From the IMG/VR virus record IMGVR_UViG_3300043411_001114, positions 32,001 to 96,000 of that record: 64,000 bases of DNA; one strand, written 5' to 3'. The stretch is from a virus. A program made the position numbers and the translations under genes. The number at the start of each line of letters is the position of its first letter. Position 1 is the first letter of the stretch. Under the pieces are notes generated by a model that was given only the letters and a program-made list of their open reading frames with translations, was not told the DNA's origin and ran no database searches. Shown piece after piece: positions 39,180 to 64,000 of this stretch.

Positions 39180-40577
39180 GTGACTCTCCACCAGCACAGC
39201 GAGTTCTCCTTCCTCGATGGCAGGGCCAGGACGATGGAGATCGCCCAGGCAGCCCAGGCCGCCGGGTACGACTCGGTGGCCATCACCGACCACGACGAGG
39301 TCGGTGGCCACATCGACTTCCAGAAATCGTGCAGGAAGGTGGGAATCAAGCCGATCTTCGGCACCGAGGCCCGCTGGGTACGTTCGATCGGGGCTAGCCG
39401 TGAAGCTAAGTCTGCCGGTCGCGACTCGTCGCACATCGTGCTGCTGGCACAGAATCAGACCGGACTGCGTAACCTGTGGGCCTTGTCTTCGCTGGCCTAC
39501 GAGCCTCACTACTTCTACGGTAAACCTCAACTCGACGTCGACCTGATGTCTCGTTATTCGGATGGACTCTGGGCGAGCGACGGATGCTCACTCACCAGAT
39601 TTACCGGCTTCGTCAATGACAATGACGAGGATTCGGCCCTGGAGGAGTGGGGTATCCTGCAGGATATCTTCGGTGACCGGTTCTACTCCGAGTTGCACAC
39701 CTTCCAGATCATCGACCCGGTGACTGACGAGGATAAGGCGCTTAACGCCCGCGTCACGGCAATGAATCAGGCCAAGATGCGGTTTGCCGAAAAGCGTGAC
39801 GTCCGGCTGGTCGCCGTCCATGACGCCCACTACGCCTACCGGCACCAGTGGGAGGAACATCGGCTGGTCTACAACCTGTCCACCCAGGCCTACCGCAAGG
39901 ATCAGGTCGAGTCCAAGGGCCAGGCCGCCGACTGGCTGATGGACCCCGACGACACGGTGTACTTTCTGGGCCGTCACGGCATTCCCACCTCGACCGCCCG
40001 GTCGGCGATCGCCAACGCCCGCGAGATTTCCGATCTGTGCAACGTCGAGATCAATCCCACCCTGTCGATGCCGCGCCTGTACCCGTCCGACGCCGAGGAC
40101 TCGGCGGCCTTCCGCGCCGCGATCGAGGAGGGGTTCCGTCGTTTCGTCGTCGACAAGGGGTTGCCCGAGGACGTCTACCGCCGCCGTCTGGAGTACGAGT
40201 CCGAACTCATCGTCGATCAGGGCATGCCGGGATATTTCAACGTGGTCGCCGATTACGTCCGTAGCGCCCGGGACGGCACCTACATTCAGTGGGTCGACCG
40301 AACCGCCAAACCCAGTCCCTGCCTGTGCGGCCCGGGCCGTGGTTCGGGCGGCGGCTCGCTGGTCAACTATGTCCTGGGCATCACCAGCCTCGACCCGATC
40401 AAATATGACCTGATGTTCGAGCGGTTCATCAACCCTGATAGGGCGAGCGAAAAGAGAAGAATAGAATTAGATTCTGGTGAAGTTCTAGAACTCAATCCAG
40501 GTGACTCGGTGCAACTCAGTGATGGTCGCGTTGTTGTGGCGAGGGACCTCAAGGAGGGGGACGATATATCTTGCTAG
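39180..40577 (+). CDS. dnaE: DNA polymerase III alpha, N-terminal part (PHP + start of palm) with a 44-aa appended tag
   Basis: LHQHSEFSFLDG, AITDHD, GPGRGSGGGSLV.Y.LGIT.LDP..YDLMFERFINPDR. Confidence 0.92.
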   Translation: MTLHQHSEFSFLDGRARTMEIAQAAQAAGYDSVAITDHDEVGGHIDFQKSCRKVGIKPIFGTEARWVRSIGASREAKSAGRDSSHIVLLAQNQTGLRNLWALSSLAYEPHYFYGKPQLDVDLMSRYSDGLWASDGCSLTRFTGFVNDNDEDSALEEWGILQDIFGDRFYSELHTFQIIDPVTDEDKALNARVTAMNQAKMRFAEKRDVRLVAVHDAHYAYRHQWEEHRLVYNLSTQAYRKDQVESKGQAADWLMDPDDTVYFLGRHGIPTSTARSAIANAREISDLCNVEINPTLSMPRLYPSDAEDSAAFRAAIEEGFRRFVVDKGLPEDVYRRRLEYESELIVDQGMPGYFNVVADYVRSARDGTYIQWVDRTAKPSPCLCGPGRGSGGGSLVNYVLGITSLDPIKYDLMFERFINPDRASEKRRIELDSGEVLELNPGDSVQLSDGRVVVARDLKEGDDISC

Positions 40578-41435
40578 AAAAAGTGAAGAACGAGAAGTTC
40601 CGTCGCGCCAAGTGTTTGTTGGTAATAGATCGAGATTGGCTTTCTGAAAAATATCTTGAAGAAAGACTCTCTAAGAGGGAGATAGCTAAGCAGGCTGGGT
40701 GCGATGTTAGTATTATTACGCGCGAGGTTGTTCGTCATGGGTTTTCAAGAAAAAGACCGGAGTGCAAGCCTCGAATCATTCTTCCCGACACGGAGTTCAG
40801 GGAAGATTATTTGTCCGGAAAACCAATGACAGACATGGCTGTTCGGTTTGGTTGTTCGGAGGACGTTATCAGACGTGAAGCTCGTAGGTTTGGTCTTCCT
40901 CCGAGGAAAAATGTTCCCATTCCTCAGGACCTGGAAGAGCTTTTGGTGGAGCGCAAGTGGTTGTGTTCCAGAGTTGCACGACATTATCAGGTTTGTGAAG
41001 ATACCGTCTATAAATGGATAAGAGAAACTGGGCTTAGTGATAGGCACCCAGTCCTTGCCAGGAGGGGAAGGCGGGGAATCAGGGGTTATCGGCATGATCT
41101 AGGCATGAGTTTTCGTAGCCGTTGGGAAGCCAATTACGCCAGAATACTCAATTATGAAGGAATTGTTTTTGAGTACGAGAAGCATAAAATTGAGGTCGAA
41201 AACGGACATAAATACGTTCCCGATTTTCGATTGATGAACGGTACGTTTGTTGAAGTGAAAGGACTTTCGACCAGAAGTAATTTGTGGAAGTTTGAGGATG
41301 CTGTTCGGCGCTATCCAGACAAGAATTTTGTTCTTGTGGACAAGCCTGTTTATAAGATTTTGGAGCGCGAATATCGCCATCTTCCTGGATGGGAGACCAA
41401 TGCCTAAGGTTGTTGCGGTTTCTGTTATTCGTACA
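40443..41435 (+). mobile_element. Low-GC element splitting dnaE: N-tag + endonuclease gene + new start/C-tag
   Basis: Removing 40443-41435 restores NPDR-GDL-PDIDVDF in frame; codon usage changes sharply at both ends. Confidence 0.85.
40571..41407 (+). CDS. Putative homing endonuclease: tandem HTH repeats + PD-(D/E)XK nuclease
   Basis: Three HTH-like units (IAKQAGCD, MAVRFGCS, VARHYQVC); FRSRWEA...YVPDF...VEVKG; AAGGAGG RBS before TTG. Confidence 0.85.
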   Translation: MLEKVKNEKFRRAKCLLVIDRDWLSEKYLEERLSKREIAKQAGCDVSIITREVVRHGFSRKRPECKPRIILPDTEFREDYLSGKPMTDMAVRFGCSEDVIRREARRFGLPPRKNVPIPQDLEELLVERKWLCSRVARHYQVCEDTVYKWIRETGLSDRHPVLARRGRRGIRGYRHDLGMSFRSRWEANYARILNYEGIVFEYEKHKIEVENGHKYVPDFRLMNGTFVEVKGLSTRSNLWKFEDAVRRYPDKNFVLVDKPVYKILEREYRHLPGWETNA

Positions 41436-43553
41436 GGAGACCTTCCTGACATCGACGTCGACTTCCAGAAGTCGAAGCGCGGCGACGTCAAGATGTATCT
41501 CGGTGCCCGATACGGGCACGACAATGTCTGCTCGATCGGCACCCGCTCCCGCTCTGGCCCCAAGCAGATGGTCAAAGACCTCGGCCGCGCCCTGAAGATC
41601 GACTGGGTCGACATCCAGAAGATCGCCGACCTCATCGGTGAGGTCGACGATATTGAGGCTTCCGAGGACGATCTTGCCGACGACCTGGCCGCCCCGACCT
41701 GGAGCGAGGTGGTGGCCGCCCTCGACTCCGACCTGGCCCCCTGGGCGCGCAAGTACCCCGAACTCTTCGACCGGCTGGAGAACATGGTCGGCCTGGTGCG
41801 TCAGGCCGGGGTGCACGCCGCCGGGGTGGTGGTCAACACCGAACCGCTGCTCGGCAATATCCCGACCAGAATCAAAAAAGGCATCCGTTCCACTCAGTTC
41901 GACATGCATGAATGCGCTGAACTCGGCGGCGTGAAGGACGACCTGCTGGCCAACAAGGGCCTGGACGTCCTCGACGTCGCTCGCACCCTGATCTGGGAGC
42001 GGCATCAGGTCTGGCTCGACTATGACGGCTTCGGTTTTGGCATCCCCGAGGGGTGCCCGAAGCATCGCGTGGTGACCTTCGGCGACGAGCATTACGCCGA
42101 CCCGGCCATCTGGGAGCAGATCGACCTGGGCATGACCGCCGGTATCTTCCAGATCGGCACCCCGTCGGGCACCAAGCAGGCGATGCGGTTCAAACCCCGG
42201 TCGTTGCCCGAACTGGCCGACCTCGCCTCCATCAACCGTCCCGGCGTGATCCGGGCCGGGCAGTTGGATCACTACCTCAAGCGCCGTAACGGTGACGAGG
42301 ACATCACCTACGACCACCCGCTGATGGAGCCGATCACCGCCCGCACGATGGGCATCCTGGTCTACCAGGAGGACATGATCCGCACCGCCCGCGAACTGGC
42401 CGGATTCACCGCCGGTCAGGGCGAGGAACTCCGTAAGGCGATCGGCAAGAAGCTGGCCGACAAGATCGCCGAGATCAAGCCCCGTTTCATCGAGGGTTGT
42501 ATGGCCAATCCGGACTTCACCGGCCCGGGCGGCACCAGGTCTACCGCCATGAAGATTTGGGCCTCGCTGGAAGCCGCCGGAGCCTACAGCTTCAATAAAG
42601 CCCACGCCACCGGGTACGCGATGCAGCCGTGCTGGGAGATATGGACCAAACACCACTACTTCGATGAGTTCATCGTCGCCTGCCTGACGGTAATGCCGGA
42701 GAAGACCGTCCAGCTGGTGCGGGAGTGCCGGAAAAAGGGTCGTCCCATCCTGCCCCCCGACATCAACACCTCGGGCGAACACTTCACCTTGACCGACGCC
42801 GGTATCCGATACGGGCTGACCGATATTCGGGGGGTCGGCAAGGCCGCCGCCGTTGACATTCTGGCCAATCGCCCTTACCGGGGCATCGGTGACTACTTGC
42901 ATCGCACCCACCCCAACAAGGGCGGTAAGAAGGGGGTCATCGACTCGCTGGTGAAGGTGGGGGCCTTCGACTCCATCGCTCACGGGATGGACCGTCAGGC
43001 CCTTCTGGACGAGGTCTACTACCACCGGGCCGGGCTGGAGGTCTCGCCCAACAAGTGGGGGAAACTCGGCCAGGACGAGAGGGACGCCATCGTCGCCTCC
43101 AAGTGGGACAAGAACCCCGACGACTACCCGGTGTTCCCCTTCGGGGACGAGAAGTTCATTGTCGCCCTGGAGACCGAACTGCTGGGCACCCACGTCAGTA
43201 TCGACCCGATGGCTCCGTATGCGGCCATGATCGAGGCTGAGTGCATCTCACACCCTGCGGAGGTCGATGACTACGACACCTCCTCCCTGATCGCCATCGG
43301 TGGCGAACTGGTCAAGGTCAAGCAGCACAAGCAGCGCAACGGCAAGGACATGGCGTTCCTCGGCATCCGGTGGAATGAGGAGGACTTCGACGTCGTCGCC
43401 TTCGCCGACTCGTGGGAGGCTAATCGCGCCATGCTGCAGGAGACCGGGGTGCCTGTCGTCTGCGAGGCCATCAAGCTGCCCGGCAAGGGTTGTCTGCTCA
43501 GTCAGGTCATCCGTCTGGACTGGATGTGTGAAGAATCGAAAACAGGAGAATGA
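41400..43553 (+). CDS. dnaE: DNA polymerase III alpha, C-terminal part with a 12-aa N-terminal tag
   Basis: GGGAG RBS, MPKVVAVSVIRT then GDLPDIDVDF, GVHAAGVV, GIFQ, NRPG, VYQE, YSFNKAHA, PDINTS, OB fold. Confidence 0.92.
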   Translation: MPKVVAVSVIRTGDLPDIDVDFQKSKRGDVKMYLGARYGHDNVCSIGTRSRSGPKQMVKDLGRALKIDWVDIQKIADLIGEVDDIEASEDDLADDLAAPTWSEVVAALDSDLAPWARKYPELFDRLENMVGLVRQAGVHAAGVVVNTEPLLGNIPTRIKKGIRSTQFDMHECAELGGVKDDLLANKGLDVLDVARTLIWERHQVWLDYDGFGFGIPEGCPKHRVVTFGDEHYADPAIWEQIDLGMTAGIFQIGTPSGTKQAMRFKPRSLPELADLASINRPGVIRAGQLDHYLKRRNGDEDITYDHPLMEPITARTMGILVYQEDMIRTARELAGFTAGQGEELRKAIGKKLADKIAEIKPRFIEGCMANPDFTGPGGTRSTAMKIWASLEAAGAYSFNKAHATGYAMQPCWEIWTKHHYFDEFIVACLTVMPEKTVQLVRECRKKGRPILPPDINTSGEHFTLTDAGIRYGLTDIRGVGKAAAVDILANRPYRGIGDYLHRTHPNKGGKKGVIDSLVKVGAFDSIAHGMDRQALLDEVYYHRAGLEVSPNKWGKLGQDERDAIVASKWDKNPDDYPVFPFGDEKFIVALETELLGTHVSIDPMAPYAAMIEAECISHPAEVDDYDTSSLIAIGGELVKVKQHKQRNGKDMAFLGIRWNEEDFDVVAFADSWEANRAMLQETGVPVVCEAIKLPGKGCLLSQVIRLDWMCEESKTGE

Positions 43554-58267: not shown

Positions 58268-59586
58268 CCATCGACCTCAGCATTCTGGTTTGCAGCACCC
58301 ACACCAGGTGGGACAATTTCGGCCAGGAGATTCAGCGCCAGCTGTGGGGTCAGTACAACGACCTTCCCGAGGAGTACCAGGCCCGGGTCGAGATTCTGAT
58401 GCTCACCGACAACAAGTCGATGATGCTCGGCCATAAGCGCAACATTCTGGTCGGGATGGCTCAGGGACGCTACGTCCAATTCGTCGACGACGACGACCGC
58501 ATCGAGCCGGACATGCTGCGCACCATCCTCGACGCCACCGACAAGAACACCGACGCCATCACTTTCCTGGCGGCCGTCTCGCTCAATGGTGAGCCGCCCA
58601 AGACGTGCCGTTACTCGCTGCGGTACCTGAAGGACAAGAACACCGCCACCGGCTACGAGCGGGTGCCCAACCATATCTGCGCCATCAAGCGGGAATTGGC
58701 GACCAGGGTATCGTTCCCGCATCTTCCCTTCGGGGAGGACTCCGGCTATGCCAAACTGCTGCGCCCCCTCCTGAAGACTGAGGCCCATATCGACCGGGTG
58801 TTGTATCGGTATGATTACAATTCCGAGACCACCGAGACCCAGCAGCATCTGCGCAATCGTCCGGCACCGGCCCGGGAGGGTGTTGCTCCGGTGGCCGACA
58901 TTGTCATCCTCTCCAATGCCACCACCAAAGACCTGAGGGCCTTGACCCAGGCCGCCGTCGACAGTTGCCGCTCTGGGGCCAACGGCCTCCCGATCGGGAT
59001 CGCCGTCCTCGAACAGAAGCCGGGGATCGTCTACCGCCGCTGCGCCACCATCCACATGGATCAGCCGTTCCACTACAACCGCTTCGCCAACTTCGGTGCC
59101 GGTCGGGGGTCGGCATCCTGGATCGTCATCGCCAACAACGACCTGGTCTTCTACGACGGCTGGCTCCACCAACTGATCGCCGCCGATCACCCGCTGGTGT
59201 CTCCGAAGTGTCCCCGTGACCCGCGTCAGGCCGAGTTCACCACCAACACCACCGGCGACCGCACCGGCAGGCACCTGTCGGGCTGGTGTTTTATGATTTC
59301 CCGCGACCTGTGGGAGAAGATCGGCGGCTTTGATGAGTCGGTGAGTTTCTGGTGCTCCGACGACGTGGTCATTGAGCAGGCCCGGTCTGAGGACGTGCTG
59401 CCGATGCTCGTCCCGGCGTCGGTGGTTGAGCATGTCCAGTCGGCGACCCTCAAGACCCAGCGCAACCGCGACGACCTCACCTGGAAGCAGGTCGACATCT
59501 TCATCAACAAGTACGGCAGCCACCGTCTGCGGGATCACCCCGAATATCTTCGGTGGAAGAAGAGTCAGGCTATAATTAGTCAGTGA
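58264..59586 (+). CDS. Two-domain GT-A (family 2-like) glycosyltransferase
   Basis: LSILV..GHKRN...GRYVQFVDDDD..GEDS; second domain N.GA...IANNDL...GWCFMI...IGGFDE...SDD. Confidence 0.9.
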   Translation: MTIDLSILVCSTHTRWDNFGQEIQRQLWGQYNDLPEEYQARVEILMLTDNKSMMLGHKRNILVGMAQGRYVQFVDDDDRIEPDMLRTILDATDKNTDAITFLAAVSLNGEPPKTCRYSLRYLKDKNTATGYERVPNHICAIKRELATRVSFPHLPFGEDSGYAKLLRPLLKTEAHIDRVLYRYDYNSETTETQQHLRNRPAPAREGVAPVADIVILSNATTKDLRALTQAAVDSCRSGANGLPIGIAVLEQKPGIVYRRCATIHMDQPFHYNRFANFGAGRGSASWIVIANNDLVFYDGWLHQLIAADHPLVSPKCPRDPRQAEFTTNTTGDRTGRHLSGWCFMISRDLWEKIGGFDESVSFWCSDDVVIEQARSEDVLPMLVPASVVEHVQSATLKTQRNRDDLTWKQVDIFINKYGSHRLRDHPEYLRWKKSQAIISQ

Positions 59587-60320
59587 ATTTCAGCATCGGG
59601 ATCGTCGCCCACCACTCTCGCCATGACCGCGCCACCAACCTCGCCGATGCCGTCGGTGCCGAGGTGGTGATGGTCGATCCTGGCCACATTAAGGCCGGTA
59701 AGAATCACGAGAGGTGCTATGAGTGGCTGGCCGAGACCGGGGCGTCGCCGTGGTCTGTGGTCATTGAAGACGATGCCATTCCTGTCACCGACTTCCGACA
59801 GCAGTTGGCCGCCGTGCTGAAGGTTACGCCCAGCCCGATCACCAGCCTGTATCTCGGCAGGTTCCGGCCCCCGCACTGGCAGTCCCAGATCGCCCAGAAG
59901 ATTGGTGGCGATCAGCATTTTCTGATGGCCACCGAACTCCTCCATCATGTCGGTGTGGCCGTCAAGACGTCACTGATTCCCGGCATGCTGGATTTCCTCA
60001 ACAATGACTCCGACTATCGCACCAAGCGCAGGCTCCCCATCGACGAGGCGATCGGTCGTTGGGTTCGGGCCGAGGGCAGGAGAGTCGCCTACACCACCCC
60101 CTCGATTCTCGATCACGAGCATCGGATCCCCACCGTCATCACCAAGCACCTGAGTCAGCACAAGGGTGAGACCGGCAAGCGGCCCGGTAATCAGCCTCGC
60201 AAGGCCTGGGTCTTCGGTGCCCGGCCCGACTGGAAGTCTTACGTCGCCGATATTCCCGAACCCTGCCAGCCCCGCATCAAGCCACTCAAATCAGTGACGA
60301 CGACCAGCGAGGAATCATGA
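59583..60320 (+). CDS. Glycosyltransferase
   Basis: NH....VVIEDDA...SLYLG...PIDE....PSILDH. Confidence 0.8.
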   Translation: MNFSIGIVAHHSRHDRATNLADAVGAEVVMVDPGHIKAGKNHERCYEWLAETGASPWSVVIEDDAIPVTDFRQQLAAVLKVTPSPITSLYLGRFRPPHWQSQIAQKIGGDQHFLMATELLHHVGVAVKTSLIPGMLDFLNNDSDYRTKRRLPIDEAIGRWVRAEGRRVAYTTPSILDHEHRIPTVITKHLSQHKGETGKRPGNQPRKAWVFGARPDWKSYVADIPEPCQPRIKPLKSVTTTSEES

Positions 60321-60919
60321 CCCTACCCAAACGCACTCTGACCGTGAATTTTCAGCGTTCGGTCACTGCCGGGCAGGCCGACCTCCTTGAGGTCACGGTG
60401 ACTCCCCTCGCCGAGCCGAGCGCCCCCTCCCAGTCGTCTCTGGTCGGGTTCAGCACCACCCAGGTCGTTGTCCTGGCCGATGAGTCCAATGCCGTGGAGT
60501 TCGAGTTGGTGCCCACCGACCATCCCGGCCTAACCGAGCGTGTCCTGTACCGCATCGCCTGGCGTCACCGTTACCTCGGACGACAGTACGTCAAAGACTT
60601 CGTGATGCCCGACTTCGATGTCGCCTTCGAGGACTTGGAAGAACTCGGTAACGTCATTGGTGGCGAGACCTACGTCCAGTGGTCGGACCTCGACAGCCTG
60701 CCCCGCAAGGTCAACGTCGCGGTCGTCCCCACCACCGGTGCCGACGCCACAGTCACCCACAATCTGGGCACTGATGACCTGATCGCCGTCTTCCGGGACT
60801 CCAACACCGACGAGTCGGTGGTGCCTGTCTCATGGGCACCTATCGGCAGCAACACCATCACCGTGACGTTTGAGACGGCACCCACCACCGGTCAATACCG
60901 GGCCATCGTCATCGGGTAA
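60317..60919 (+). CDS. Hypothetical protein, probably virion-associated
   Basis: C-terminal VTHNLGT...TVTF..AP..GQYR module. Confidence 0.6.
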   Translation: MTLPKRTLTVNFQRSVTAGQADLLEVTVTPLAEPSAPSQSSLVGFSTTQVVVLADESNAVEFELVPTDHPGLTERVLYRIAWRHRYLGRQYVKDFVMPDFDVAFEDLEELGNVIGGETYVQWSDLDSLPRKVNVAVVPTTGADATVTHNLGTDDLIAVFRDSNTDESVVPVSWAPIGSNTITVTFETAPTTGQYRAIVIG

Positions 60920-60980
60920 AAAAGCCGCCCTGCCGCCAGCGGGTTTTCGGACTTGAATAGGTGGAAGGCGGGTGGTTCGG

Positions 60981-62144
60981 GTGACGCAACGGTTCTGGCC
61001 TCTCGCTGCGGGCCGCATCATCACCAGCCCTTACGGCCCCCGCGACGGCGGCTATCACTACGGCACCGATTTCGGGTTCCCGGGCGGCTCCGCCGGGAAG
61101 CCGGTGTTTGCCATCGACTCGGGAATCGTCGTGTACAGCGGTGCCGCCCAAGGCTACGGCGGCCCCGACCCGGCCGGGTGGATCGTCATCAAGTCCGACT
61201 CCGGGGTCTGGGAGTACGGACACATCGTGCGGGAGCCTCACATCCGCCCGGGGGTGATGGTCGACGCCGGGACGAAGATCGCCACCATCAACCCCAACAG
61301 TGCCACCAACGGCGGTACCGCACCGCACCTGCACCTGTCCTGGATGCCGGGAAGGTATGACCCCAACCAGAAGAAGGACCCGATCCCGGTTCTGCGTGAC
61401 GCCGCCGAACCCGGGCCGATCAAGGAGAAGAACGTGGGCTGGAGTGGAGACCCCGTCTGGCTGGCTGACGTCCTGAAGAACTGGAAGAAGGGTTCTCGTC
61501 TCAAAACCGTCGAGATGCCCGACTGGAACCAGTACGGGCATGGCGACTTCGGGCAGATCTGGGGGGTGATGGTCCACCACACCGGCAACGCCAACGCCGA
61601 CGCGATGTCGATCCGCAATGGCCGCCCCGACCTCGCCGGTCCGCTCTCCAACCTGCACATCGCCCAGGACGGGACGGTCACTGTGGTCGCGGCCGGGGTC
61701 TGCTGGCACGCCGGGTACGGCTCCTATCCGGGCATCCCCACCAACGGCGGCAATCAGGTTCTGATCGGCATCGAGTGTGCCTGGCCCCGCGACACCTCCA
61801 TCACCCCGGCCACTCAGACCCGGGAACGGTGGCCCGACCCGCAGATCATCGCCATGCGTGACACGGTGGCCGCCATCCTCGACCGTCTCGGATATGGCCC
61901 CGACCGGGTGATTGCTCACAAGGAGTACGCCGGTCGCTCCCAGGGAAAATGGGACCCCGGCAACCTGGACATGAACTGGTTCCGCTCCGAGGTCGGCCTG
62001 GCCCAGCGTGGTCAGTTCATCCCCAAGCCGACACCCGTCCCCACACCGCCGGACACTTCCAAGGTCTATCCGCGCGACTACACCGACCGCGAGCTTCTCG
62101 AAGACATCTGGAAGACCCTGCAACCCCTGAAAGGCAAGTCATGA
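60981..62144 (+). CDS. lysA: Lysin A (M23 peptidase + amidase-2)
   Basis: HYGTDF, YGH, PHLH (M23); VMVHHTG, CWHAG, IGIE, HKE..KWDPG (amidase); start 60972 or 60981. Confidence 0.92.
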   Translation: MTQRFWPLAAGRIITSPYGPRDGGYHYGTDFGFPGGSAGKPVFAIDSGIVVYSGAAQGYGGPDPAGWIVIKSDSGVWEYGHIVREPHIRPGVMVDAGTKIATINPNSATNGGTAPHLHLSWMPGRYDPNQKKDPIPVLRDAAEPGPIKEKNVGWSGDPVWLADVLKNWKKGSRLKTVEMPDWNQYGHGDFGQIWGVMVHHTGNANADAMSIRNGRPDLAGPLSNLHIAQDGTVTVVAAGVCWHAGYGSYPGIPTNGGNQVLIGIECAWPRDTSITPATQTRERWPDPQIIAMRDTVAAILDRLGYGPDRVIAHKEYAGRSQGKWDPGNLDMNWFRSEVGLAQRGQFIPKPTPVPTPPDTSKVYPRDYTDRELLEDIWKTLQPLKGKS

Positions 62145-62536
62145 TCTCCCTCCTGAAGCTCGACCCCCAGGTTCGGCAGTGGCTCTATGCGGTCGCCGCC
62201 TTCGCCTCGGCCCTCGTCCCGCTGCTGGTGACCTACAACGTCATCAGCGCCGAGTCCTCCAACTCCTGGCTGCAGTTGATCGGGATTCTCGGTGGTGTGG
62301 GTGCCGCCGGTGCCACCACCGCTGCGGTGGTCACCTCCAAGCAGCGCAAGGAGGGCACCCTGGACTTCACCGGTTCGGCCGACGAGCAGGCCGTCCAGGC
62401 TATCGAGTACACCGCCCACGCCGCCTCGGAGGGGGTGGCCCGGCTGCAGAAGATCATCCAGGCCGCCTCTTCCGCCGTGCCGCCCAACCCGGTGTCCCCC
62501 AACAGCGACCCGTCCAGCGCCAACTATCAGCCCTGA
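62141..62536 (+). CDS. Holin
   Basis: VRQWLY plus two TM helices, between lysA and lysB. Confidence 0.85.
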   Translation: MISLLKLDPQVRQWLYAVAAFASALVPLLVTYNVISAESSNSWLQLIGILGGVGAAGATTAAVVTSKQRKEGTLDFTGSADEQAVQAIEYTAHAASEGVARLQKIIQAASSAVPPNPVSPNSDPSSANYQP

Positions 62537-62545
62537 GGATCATCT

Positions 62546-63196
62546 ATGTACATCGGCGGTCAGTGGGTAGGTCTCGGCCTGGGTGACAGCAGCCCCGAGG
62601 TGCGGGAACTCAAGCGCTTCATGAGGCGCAAGTTCTCCTACGCCAAGAACCTCGACGACACCACGCTCTACGACCAGGCGATGGTGACCGCTGTCGCCGA
62701 CATGCAGGATGATGACGTTGTGGAAGAGTGGCGTTCTGTTTCGGGATATCCCGACTATGAGGTGTCAGATCAGGGACGAGTGCGGTCGTTTCGGAGAAAC
62801 CGGCAGGGACAAGTGTTGCGCGTAAATCGCATCACTAACGGATACCTTCAGGTGAATCTGTACATAGGATCGGGAAAGGGGTCTCGCAAGCTGGTGCATC
62901 GGTTGGTTCTGGAGGCGTTTGTGGGACCGAAACCGTCTGGCCATGAGGCCTGTCATAACGACGGGGATCAGACAAACAATCGACTCACCAACCTGCGTTG
63001 GGATACTCCTAAAAACAATGCTCGTGATGTGAAATTGCACGGTCGTCAATTTCAGGAAAACAAGACTGAGTGCCCCCGGGGTCACAGCTATTCGGGAGAC
63101 AACATCTACCACCGTCCTGGCGGCGGCCGGGGGTGCAAAGCGTGCCGCGCCGAAGCGACACGAAGGAGCAGGGCTAGAAGGTCATCATGCGTATAG
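62546..63196 (+). CDS. Fusion of the original LysB N-terminal 54 aa to a NUMOD4-HNH endonuclease
   Basis: MYIGGQWVGLGLGD...VADMQ, then EEWRSV.GY..YEVSDQGRVRS, VHRLV..AF, CHNDGD..NN...NLRW, CPRGH...CKAC. Confidence 0.9.
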   Translation: MYIGGQWVGLGLGDSSPEVRELKRFMRRKFSYAKNLDDTTLYDQAMVTAVADMQDDDVVEEWRSVSGYPDYEVSDQGRVRSFRRNRQGQVLRVNRITNGYLQVNLYIGSGKGSRKLVHRLVLEAFVGPKPSGHEACHNDGDQTNNRLTNLRWDTPKNNARDVKLHGRQFQENKTECPRGHSYSGDNIYHRPGGGRGCKACRAEATRRSRARRSSCV

Positions 63197-63366
63197 GTGG
63201 ACAGTACGTTGGCATAGGTCTTGGGGATTCCAGCGAAGAAGTCGGCAAGATTCGTGATTTTGGAAGACGAAAGTTTTCGTACTGGAAGGACCTTCCTGAC
63301 GCGCGAAACGCACAGGGGCTTCCGTTGTATGACGAGGCGATGGCCGCCGCTGTAGCCGAGACTCAG
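62708..63366 (+). mobile_element. HNH element carrying a replacement lysB 5' end
   Basis: 659-bp low-GC3 block with CAG|G at both junctions; its removal gives an in-frame VADMQ-ARYNT. Confidence 0.8.
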
Positions 63367-64000
63367 GCCCGCTACAACACCGGTTTCGGTCAGTTGGCGA
63401 CCGGCAAGTATGTCCCGGGCATCGTCAACTACGAGACCAAGGTCGTGATGGGCTTCATTCCCCGACCGAAGCGTCCCGACCAGCGCCCGATGCTGTTCAG
63501 CGTCTGCGGCACCGGGGTCCCGTGGTGGGTCGGCCCGGACGCCGACACCGCCCGCGCGGTCGAGGACAAGTACCGCTGGCAGCCGATCGGCTACCCGGCC
63601 ACCGCCGTCCCGATGGGCAAATCCATCCAGGCCGGGAAGGACGAACTGGAGAACCAGTTCCACATCCACCGCGAGCAGATCATCGCCTACGGTGCCGCGC
63701 TCCTAGGCTACAGCCAGGGCGCGATCGTCGTCTCCGAGTTGTTCGAGGAGCAGATTCGTCCGATCTCAGGCCGTCTTCGGTGGGCCTACCTTCACCTCAC
63801 CAAGGCCTGCACCTGGGGCAATCCGAGCCGCGAGAAGGGCAAGGTCTGGCCCGACGCCGGTGGGCCGCCCGCCTCACCGCACACCCGGGGTGTCGTCGAC
63901 AATCGCATGATCGACACCCCCGACTGGTGGCGTAACTACGCCCATAAGGGCGATCTGTACACCGACTGTCCGGACGATGAGTCGGGCGAGAACCGGACCG
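63187..64000 (+). CDS. lysB: Lysin B (mycolylarabinogalactan esterase), truncated by the window end
   Basis: MRIGGQYVGIGLGD...LFSVCGTG...WQPIGYPA...GYSQGA...TWGNP.R...H.GDLY; absent from the ORF track because it has no stop in the window. Confidence 0.92.
   Translation, partial: MRIGGQYVGIGLGDSSEEVGKIRDFGRRKFSYWKDLPDARNAQGLPLYDEAMAAAVAETQARYNTGFGQLATGKYVPGIVNYETKVVMGFIPRPKRPDQRPMLFSVCGTGVPWWVGPDADTARAVEDKYRWQPIGYPATAVPMGKSIQAGKDELENQFHIHREQIIAYGAALLGYSQGAIVVSELFEEQIRPISGRLRWAYLHLTKACTWGNPSREKGKVWPDAGGPPASPHTRGVVDNRMIDTPDWWRNYAHKGDLYTDCPDDESGENRT

Follow-up and report, generated by a model that had tools for sequence, protein, structure and literature searches.

If a homing gene enters an essential coding sequence, it is thought to be viable only within a self-splicing intron or intein, or where the interrupted gene works as pieces that reassemble. 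A lysis gene in a 64,000-nucleotide stretch of phage DNA (positions 32,001 to 96,000 of IMG/VR virus record IMGVR_UViG_3300043411_001114; hereafter the window) raises the question of how such a gene can be invaded and still be whole. In the lysis cassette at the window end, between the holin gene and the body of lysB, the 5' end of lysB is present twice: a first copy (copy 1) runs into an HNH endonuclease gene, and a second, diverged copy (copy 2) runs into the lysB body. A first-pass annotation proposed that an HNH element had invaded lysB, taken over its start and rebuilt the gene with a recoded duplicate 5' end. The explanation considered probable overall is an imported cassette that arose by one-sided illegitimate repair and that works as an end-replacement homing element.

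The ORF list (open reading frames, ORFs), PHROGs matches and pairwise alignment all bear out that the LysB N-terminus is encoded twice, at the coordinates listed in Table 1. The displaced copy 1 still has the ribosome-binding site and ATG of the original gene and runs in frame into the nuclease, such that a single ORF of 216 amino acids (62546-63196) encodes a 54-residue LysB N-terminus followed by NUMOD4 (residues 60-106) and HNH_3 (residues 115-160) domains. In PHROGs, residues 3-55 of this fusion belong to the LysB family phrog_102 and the remainder to HNH. Copy 2 brings a ribosome-binding site and an ATG of its own and reads in frame into the native body; the rebuilt lysB comprises 344 codons (63187 to 64221), and its ATG at 63187 overlaps the nuclease stop (63194-63196) by 10 nucleotides. 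An intact chimeric LysB is encoded without splicing.

The two 5' ends differ strongly in sequence and in composition. Copies 1 and 2 share 57% protein identity with a 6-residue indel (E=3e-21), and at the DNA level 58.6% identity, with a longest identical run of 9 nucleotides and 17 of 54 third codon positions in common, which is near saturation. The GC content of third codon positions (GC3) is high in copy 1 (0.889) and the lysB body (0.866) and lower in the HNH part (0.56) and copy 2 (0.533); copy 2 departs from the body (p=5e-8) and not from the HNH part (p=0.76), while copy 1 is indistinguishable from the body (p=0.83). The annotated contrast between a copy 1 with native GC3-rich codons, in frame with NUMOD4-HNH domains that score above the Pfam gathering thresholds, and a copy 2 with nuclease-like codons that overlaps the nuclease stop and leads into native lysB thus stands. 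Overall GC content is 0.52-0.57 in the cassette versus 0.62-0.72 in its flanks, and both GC content and GC skew shift across 62700-63400. A repeat finder pairs 62664-62708 with 63323-63367 at a spacing of 659, and CAG|G is read at both junctions (62705-62708 and 63364-63367), as had been described. The homologous position of the two junctions follows partly from how the repeat is defined; the non-trivial observation is that identity to the empty allele switches exactly at the junction.

Such empty alleles reveal which copy is native. An activated-sludge contig, L035, has the same lysA-holin-lysB order and a single lysB, and its blastn alignment covers 61150-62708 and then 63328-63688, skipping 659 bp. 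Codon by codon, L035 follows copy 1 up to ...GAC ATG CAG and then the sequence after copy 2, and the empty lysB allele across the junction reads ...GCCGACATGCAG|GCCCGCTAC... Copy 1 is identical to the L035 allele at 52 of 54 residues, and identical or near-identical to LysB alleles of 338 residues. The latter provide stronger evidence of polarity than L035 does: a single 90% protein cluster holds both 344-residue alleles with copy 2 and 338-residue alleles in which copy 1 is joined to ARYNT (P0156, from 8 contigs; P0158; and P0161), which amounts to a presence/absence polymorphism at one site. The evidence from these three alleles is at the protein level, and that from L035 at the DNA level; at both levels, the element-free relatives anticipated by the first-pass annotation, with one lysB and copy 1 joined to ARYNT, exist. 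More distant relatives with the same gene order (60-70% LysB identity) likewise have copy-1-type N-termini and no nuclease. A degenerate pattern of the empty junction, searched for in IMG/VR, had zero matches. The insertion, after lysB codon 54, is clean, with no native base lost on either side. Since copy 1 leads straight into ARYNT in the empty alleles, it is copy 1 that is native and the cassette that is imported. The reverse, that copy 2 is ancestral and copy 1 arrived with the nuclease, had been named as fatal to the original proposal and has nothing in its favor beyond the symmetry of the duplication. It is scarcely credible, given that copy 1 has the codon usage of the genome and copy 2 that of the nuclease, that every element-free relative is of the copy-1 type in the same holin-lysB context, and that the empty alleles already refute it.

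The window derives from a metagenome-derived viral contig, and both allele types coexist in metagenomes, as would be needed for the duplication to be an assembly chimera of two co-occurring lysB alleles. However, the 216-residue fusion was found in nine variants on about 29 contigs of up to 146 kb, which were assembled independently by JGI, ENA and Logan, and the reading frame and catalytic motif are preserved in all nine. For instance, L007, a 6.4-kb contig from another metagenome, has the same architecture, fusion included, at 97.9% identity over 5.3 kb with 112 scattered differences. In addition, an HNH gene between the two copies is not expected of a chimera. An assembly artifact, which was also a declared concern of the first-pass annotation, therefore has a negligible probability. 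Two LysB N-termini were found in none of the 734 and 587 phage records that match copy 1 or copy 2, so that sequenced phages show no instance of the duplicated, fused arrangement. Against phage genomes, a megablast search with the region was blank, and only blastn and tblastn were informative.

Splicing offers a different route to an intact gene. If the 659 bp were a spliced intron (or intein), copy 1 would be rejoined to ARYNT and copy 2 would be a non-functional passenger; deletion of 62708-63366 does restore a native-looking lysB frame, and group I introns with nuclease genes exist in mycobacteriophages (PMC3706429). In contrast, no Rfam intron family matched 62300-63700 even at E<=10, the only two hits being at chance level, and Pfam detected no intein (Hint) domain. 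The fusion ORF stops well ahead of the body and lysB restarts in another frame, and copy 2 is an in-frame start of lysB, with a ribosome-binding site and an ATG, that is conserved as protein in all nine listed 344-residue alleles. Splicing is thus very improbable, in agreement with the splicing-free arrangement that had been proposed.

Copy 2 has relatives of its own. Every one of its best matches (78-83%) is a cluster F mycobacteriophage lysB with a free-standing NUMOD4-HNH gene directly upstream, in stop/start overlap (for instance, KingMidas gp32/33 and Ramsey gp33/34), and these HNH-linked alleles share with copy 2 the 6-residue insertion and the GKIRDFGRRKFSYW signature. For copy 1, HNH-free lysB genes match best. 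A related N-terminus type (70-72%) is present in cluster O phages, which are without the HNH gene. In the cluster F HNH-linked genes, GC3 is 0.65-0.67 over the first ~55 codons versus 0.80, and identity to HNH-free cluster F lysB rises to 98-100% only past about codon 75, a typical co-conversion tract. Since all best matches of copy 2 are HNH-linked lysB genes with a shared insertion, copy 2 is a foreign allele that travels with HNH genes rather than a recoded duplicate. Therefore, the part of the earlier proposal in which a carried, diverged N-terminus restores lysB is retained, and recoding is replaced by the acquisition of a foreign homologous allele. A paralogue elsewhere in the genome was also considered as donor and rejected, as the 112-kb record has one copy.

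Several side observations concern the cluster F loci. KingMidas (L004:1962-2680) and Ramsey (L005:1905-2680) have HNH genes that are 47% identical at the same lysA/lysB site, and their first 20 lysB codons have 84-91% DNA identity, the 5' allele being better conserved than its nuclease. In Mycobacterium phage Eish (MN585975, L006:2213-3517), the annotated 'lysin B' has 434 residues: the lysB frame is open for ~96 codons upstream via an alternative frame of the HNH gene, the HNH frame lacks the stop found in Ramsey, and the sequence after ...HRLDS differs. This has the appearance of a decaying nuclease with an over-extended gene call.

The nuclease belongs to a well-defined group. Matches to PF07463 (NUMOD4; 49.2 bits, cut-off 23.4) and PF13392 (HNH_3; 47.1 bits, cut-off 24.8) are well above threshold, phrog_1492 matches at E=1e-64, and fusion residues 61-162 align to residues 2-100 of I-HmuI (1U3E; E=1e-11). 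The CHNDGD...NN...NLRW motif is invariant in 9/9 variants; H137, N138, D139, N149 and N158, as well as C176, H180, C197 and C200 of a zinc-ribbon-like stretch, are invariant in 11 aligned sequences. The closest relatives, P0002 and P0003, are free-standing proteins of 162 residues (69% and 63% identical, respectively) that start 2-5 residues before the EEWR motif, which places the left junction within about five codons of the natural nuclease start; similarly, I-HmuI residue 2 aligns to fusion residue 61. An in-frame GTG at 62720 could serve as a start of the nuclease itself. Variant P0127 no longer has this codon (V to A) and keeps an ORF that is otherwise intact, a weak hint of translation from the captured lysB ATG. 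Relatives of P0002 in IMG/VR are only 41-47% identical, and none adjoins lysB.

A second locus shows a comparable fusion. In L031 (Ga0114976_10000353, L031:1803-3355), the first seven codons of the native lysB (MKIGGQW) run in frame into a NUMOD4-HNH gene that is 40% identical to the window nuclease. These native codons are GC3-rich, and the holin stop overlaps the native lysB ATG (ATGA). A full lysB comes next, its ATG overlapping the nuclease stop by the same 10-nucleotide ATGCGNATAG, with low GC3 over its first 20-40 codons. Past the remnant, the native codons are missing up to the end of the foreign tract, as would be expected from one-sided repair with some resection, and L031 represents a second, independent in-frame capture. 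As a separate observation, L032 (Ga0208784_1002399, L032:1051-1760) has a 235-residue HNH gene directly upstream of lysB; the usual Met codon of that lysB reads Ile (IRIGGAYVG), the frame is open upstream inside the nuclease 3' end, and the lysB start has probably moved.

If the cassette is an active homing element, then it is expected to move between alleles; if it is the fossil of a single illegitimate recombination, with an inactive or irrelevant nuclease, then its presence or absence reflects ordinary recombination and occasional deletion. A single phage population contains occupied alleles, empty alleles and one hybrid. Occupied and empty alleles interleave in their LysB body haplotypes: a single residue separates the occupied P0165 from the empty P0156, while occupied alleles differ among themselves by up to 13, and the copy-1 variants K27 and R34 are found in occupied fusions (P0127 and P0128) as well as in empty alleles (L035 and P0158). 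Copy 2 is invariant across the nine occupied alleles except for N41D. Comparison of the window with L007 shows 5 differences in copy 1 (all synonymous), 5 in the nuclease, none in copy 2 and 14 in the next 180 nucleotides of lysB; the cassette as a whole has 5/659 nucleotide differences versus 107/4696 elsewhere (p=0.008).

The insertion site is likewise informative. The cassette lies within MQ|xRY, the most conserved motif of the N-terminal accessory domain; all 14 other LysBs compared have the Met of this motif, and only the present copy 2 has lost it. Three bases of copy 2 are changed in the 6 nucleotides adjoining the site, and the resulting E-T codons are a candidate immunity change. The same two residues, which set the end of copy 2 apart from the native ADMQ, are present in the hybrid allele P0159, whose copy-1 N-terminus ends in AETQ. 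P0159 may have arisen either by repair from an occupied template with a short conversion tract or by recombinational excision within the 11-nucleotide near-identical interval GCTGT(C/A)GCCGA, and under both readings it places a recombination event at the junction.

Several points weigh against an active, homing element. The L035 allele has 2.4x coverage and an apparent frameshift near lysB codon 86 (the frameshift in L035:1384-1865 being either a sequencing error or a broken gene), the cut site is placed by the clean junction only, and the donor arrangement is one that we can only infer. Three of the five nuclease differences between the window and L007 are non-synonymous and two synonymous, possibly reflecting relaxed constraint, and about 10 nuclease residues are variable among the nine variants. 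The interleaved haplotypes could be explained by ordinary phage recombination instead of homing, and window-L007 divergence is patchy over 5.3 kb, which makes the lower divergence of the cassette suggestive and not decisive. Across 59546-64000 and beyond, there are 0 differences in 59546-60345, 11 in 60746-60945, and 15-17 per 200 nucleotides past 64146; this patchiness indicates recent mosaic recombination around the lysis cassette. Finally, a lysB-specific HNH clade was rejected, as the HNH genes adjoining lysB have only 40-54% mutual identity, with the cluster F nucleases 44-46% identical to that of the window.

The fossil explanation draws on the same non-synonymous share and mosaic divergence; moreover, P0159 is readable as a deletion by recombination between the two copies, and strong mosaicism is known of mycobacteriophage lysis cassettes, around which at least 18 HNH insertions have been recorded (PMC3706429). 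It accounts less well for a nuclease ORF that is intact, with invariant catalytic and zinc-binding residues and a frame preserved in 9/9 variants, for a clean insertion without loss on either side in the most conserved motif of the domain, for a copy 2 that is nearly invariant across body haplotypes up to 13 residues apart, and for the second in-frame capture in L031. A fossil is therefore unlikely, although far more plausible than splicing. A reading of the cassette as a phage element that actively homes by end-replacement, perhaps the first outside fungi, with the displaced fragment serving as both homology arm and translation-initiation leader of the nuclease, is put forward tentatively, with chances a little short of even.

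One-sided, illegitimate break repair from an HNH-lysB donor is the likely origin of the imported cassette. In the donor, lysB would have been directly preceded by a free-standing HNH gene, the order found in cluster F mycobacteriophages, L031 and L032, and the nuclease would have cut or nicked the recipient lysB near ...ATGCAG|GCC. At the right end, homology with the donor lysB body would have allowed copying leftward through the donor 5' end and the HNH gene; the left end would have been joined illegitimately, possibly at the CAGG microhomology, because the differing gene order left no upstream homology. Later spread could then have proceeded by ordinary break-repair homing, with copy 1 and the body as homology arms, and copy 2 would provide a resistant version of the target whose divergence from copy 1 would hinder excision. 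Translation of the nuclease would begin at the lysB start that it has captured, on the late lysis transcript.

The arrangement has parallels in fungi. In Torulaspora and Lachancea yeasts, a WHO element exchanges the 3' end of FBA1 for a resistant copy, and the former end persists as a remnant (Coughlan et al. 2020, eLife; PMC7282813). As in WHO elements, a nuclease gene is here accompanied by a diverged copy of the end of its target gene (resistance-conferring in WHO), the end is replaced without splicing, the old end persists as a fragment that would act as a homology arm, and the target gene is chimeric with discordant ends. The nuclease adjoins the diverged, in-frame copy of the gene end, and the native end is kept on its far side. 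In contrast, it is the 5' end that is replaced here, a mirror image of the 3' replacement in yeast. The WHO nuclease is an intein-derived LAGLIDADG zinc-finger protein, whereas that of the phage is an I-HmuI-like HNH enzyme in which Pfam detected only NUMOD4 and HNH_3 and neither Hint nor LAGLIDADG domains. WHO elements act in diploid yeast, whereas the present setting is a phage and cleavage is a prediction. Their displaced fragments are silent pseudogenes in stacked clusters, unlike the single fragment here, which retains its ribosome-binding site and ATG and is fused in frame to the nuclease. The element would work like a WHO element but is not a member of the WHO family.

Similarly, the elements termed mORFs of fungal mitochondria bring a foreign C-terminus, for instance to atp6 in Allomyces macrogynus and to atp6, atp9, cox2 and nad3 in Glomus (Beaudet et al. 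2013, PMC3630166). There too, an endonuclease ORF enters together with a diverged gene end that is in phase with the gene core; a duplicate native end, beyond the nuclease, resembles that of close relatives, and the inserted end is foreign. Unlike the lysB element, mORFs provide a C-terminal end, encode LAGLIDADG or GIY-YIG nucleases and reside in an organelle genome, and their nuclease can be in phase with the rebuilt gene, whereas here it is in phase with the displaced fragment.

Among phages, HNH-associated rearrangements around mycobacteriophage lysis genes have been described (Pope et al. 2013, PMC3706429). The cluster F HNH genes of Ramsey and KingMidas resemble the window element in their NUMOD4-HNH_3 domains, their position immediately upstream of lysB with stop/start overlap, and their linkage to the same lysB 5' allele type, with the 6-residue insertion and depressed GC3. 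They differ in lying between genes, where the lysB 5' end is simply replaced without duplicated remnant or fusion. One-sided, illegitimate break repair at microhomologies is documented for T4 intron homing (review PMC2988022); as proposed here, homology on one side suffices, the other junction forms at a microhomology and ectopic sites can be invaded, although that is a laboratory intron system with extensive end degradation, and here no native base is lost. In genes-in-pieces (mobE in nrdA of Aeh1, and mobA in the topoisomerase gene of T4; PMC2988022), a free-standing HNH gene also lies within a coding region with function kept and neither intron nor intein; those genes are split into two polypeptides that reassemble, whereas lysB is made whole by a carried replacement end. 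A literature search found no phage description of this arrangement, although its coverage was incomplete and it is thus not proof of absence.

Table 1. Features of the lysis cassette and of the inserted element, in window coordinates.
Feature	Position	Strand	Basis
lysA, endolysin with M23 peptidase and amidase_2 domains	60972..62144	+	Pfam PF01551, PF01510; ORF list
Holin	62141..62536	+	Near-threshold Pfam mycobacterial holin matches; relatives L013-L019, L031, L035
Native lysB Shine-Dalgarno GAGGA, now presumably serving the fusion ORF	62535..62539	+	Sequence
Copy 1, native lysB 5' end, 54 codons, GC3 0.889	62546..62707	+	Empty-allele alignment; phrog_102
Left junction CAG|G	62705..62708	+	Same 4 nucleotides again at 63364-63367; possible microhomology
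Inserted cassette, 659 bp: HNH gene and foreign lysB 5' end	62708..63366	+	Empty-site alignment, composition, repeat spacing
In-frame GTG, possible own start of the nuclease (MEEWR...)	62720..62722	+	Starts of free-standing relatives; I-HmuI alignment
NUMOD4 motif	62723..62863	+	PF07463, E=6e-13
HNH_3 catalytic domain	62888..63025	+	PF13392, E=2e-12; I-HmuI 1U3E, E=1e-11
C-x3-H...C-x2-C zinc-ribbon-like stretch, presumed DNA-binding	63071..63145	+	Invariant alignment columns
Putative Shine-Dalgarno AGAAGG of rebuilt lysB, inside the nuclease ORF 3' end	63176..63181	+	Sequence
Copy 2, foreign lysB 5' end, 60 codons, GC3 0.533	63187..63366	+	ORF list, composition, homologue matches
Codons GAG ACT (E-T) versus native GAC ATG (D-M), directly 5' of the junction; candidate immunity change	63358..63363	+	Empty-allele alignment; also present in hybrid allele P0159
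Native lysB body, GC3 0.866, catalytic esterase domain	63367..64000, on to 64221 outside the window	+	3HC7 match

The surrounding cassette has the lysA-holin-lysB order that is also found in relatives L013-L019, L031 and L035, and the native lysB ATG is 9 nucleotides downstream of the holin stop. LysB matches phrog_102 at E=2e-97, and its residues 100-341 match the structure of D29 LysB (3HC7, E=2e-39), with the GYSQG serine motif aligned and invariant in the cluster. As the catalytic domain thus spans residues 100-341, the duplicated part belongs to the N-terminal accessory domain, whose tentative identity comes from a sub-threshold PG_binding_1 match (E=0.018). LysB is a mycolyl-arabinogalactan esterase, which suggests a phage host with a mycolic-acid cell wall; the source of the phage is wastewater and activated-sludge metagenomes, and a LysB profile run against 185,579 species genomes found no prophage copy. 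Scans of 60800-64000 gave no promoter-like sites and a single minus-strand terminator-like site (60942-60925, upstream of lysA), no more than chance, and predicted RNA folding around the new lysB ribosome-binding site did not exceed shuffles (z=0.54). Elsewhere in the window, dnaE (39180-43553) is present as two ORFs (39180-40577 and 41292-43553) with a 278-residue ORF (40571-41407) between them, and is thus another gene interrupted by a mobile-looking gene with no obvious splicing.

For annotation, such loci call for caution, as gene callers mis-handle them: the JGI lysB call, P0155, has 298 residues with its start inside copy 2, truncated because lysB overlaps the fusion ORF, and the 'lysin B' of Eish is over-long. 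For the biology of homing genes, end-replacement is a third solution to life within an essential coding sequence, experimentally shown only for the yeast WHO elements and proposed on inference for the fungal mORFs. The phage example, if true, would be an independent origin of end-replacement with an unrelated (HNH) nuclease, and the in-frame capture of a host-gene start codon would be an extra feature not described for the fungal elements. With occupied, empty and hybrid alleles already in nature, it would be a tractable system. The well-known mosaicism within actinobacteriophage lysis genes also gains a concrete mechanism: the same lifestyle, in milder form, may be at work in L031 and the cluster F phages and may generally drive 5'-end mosaicism in these genes.

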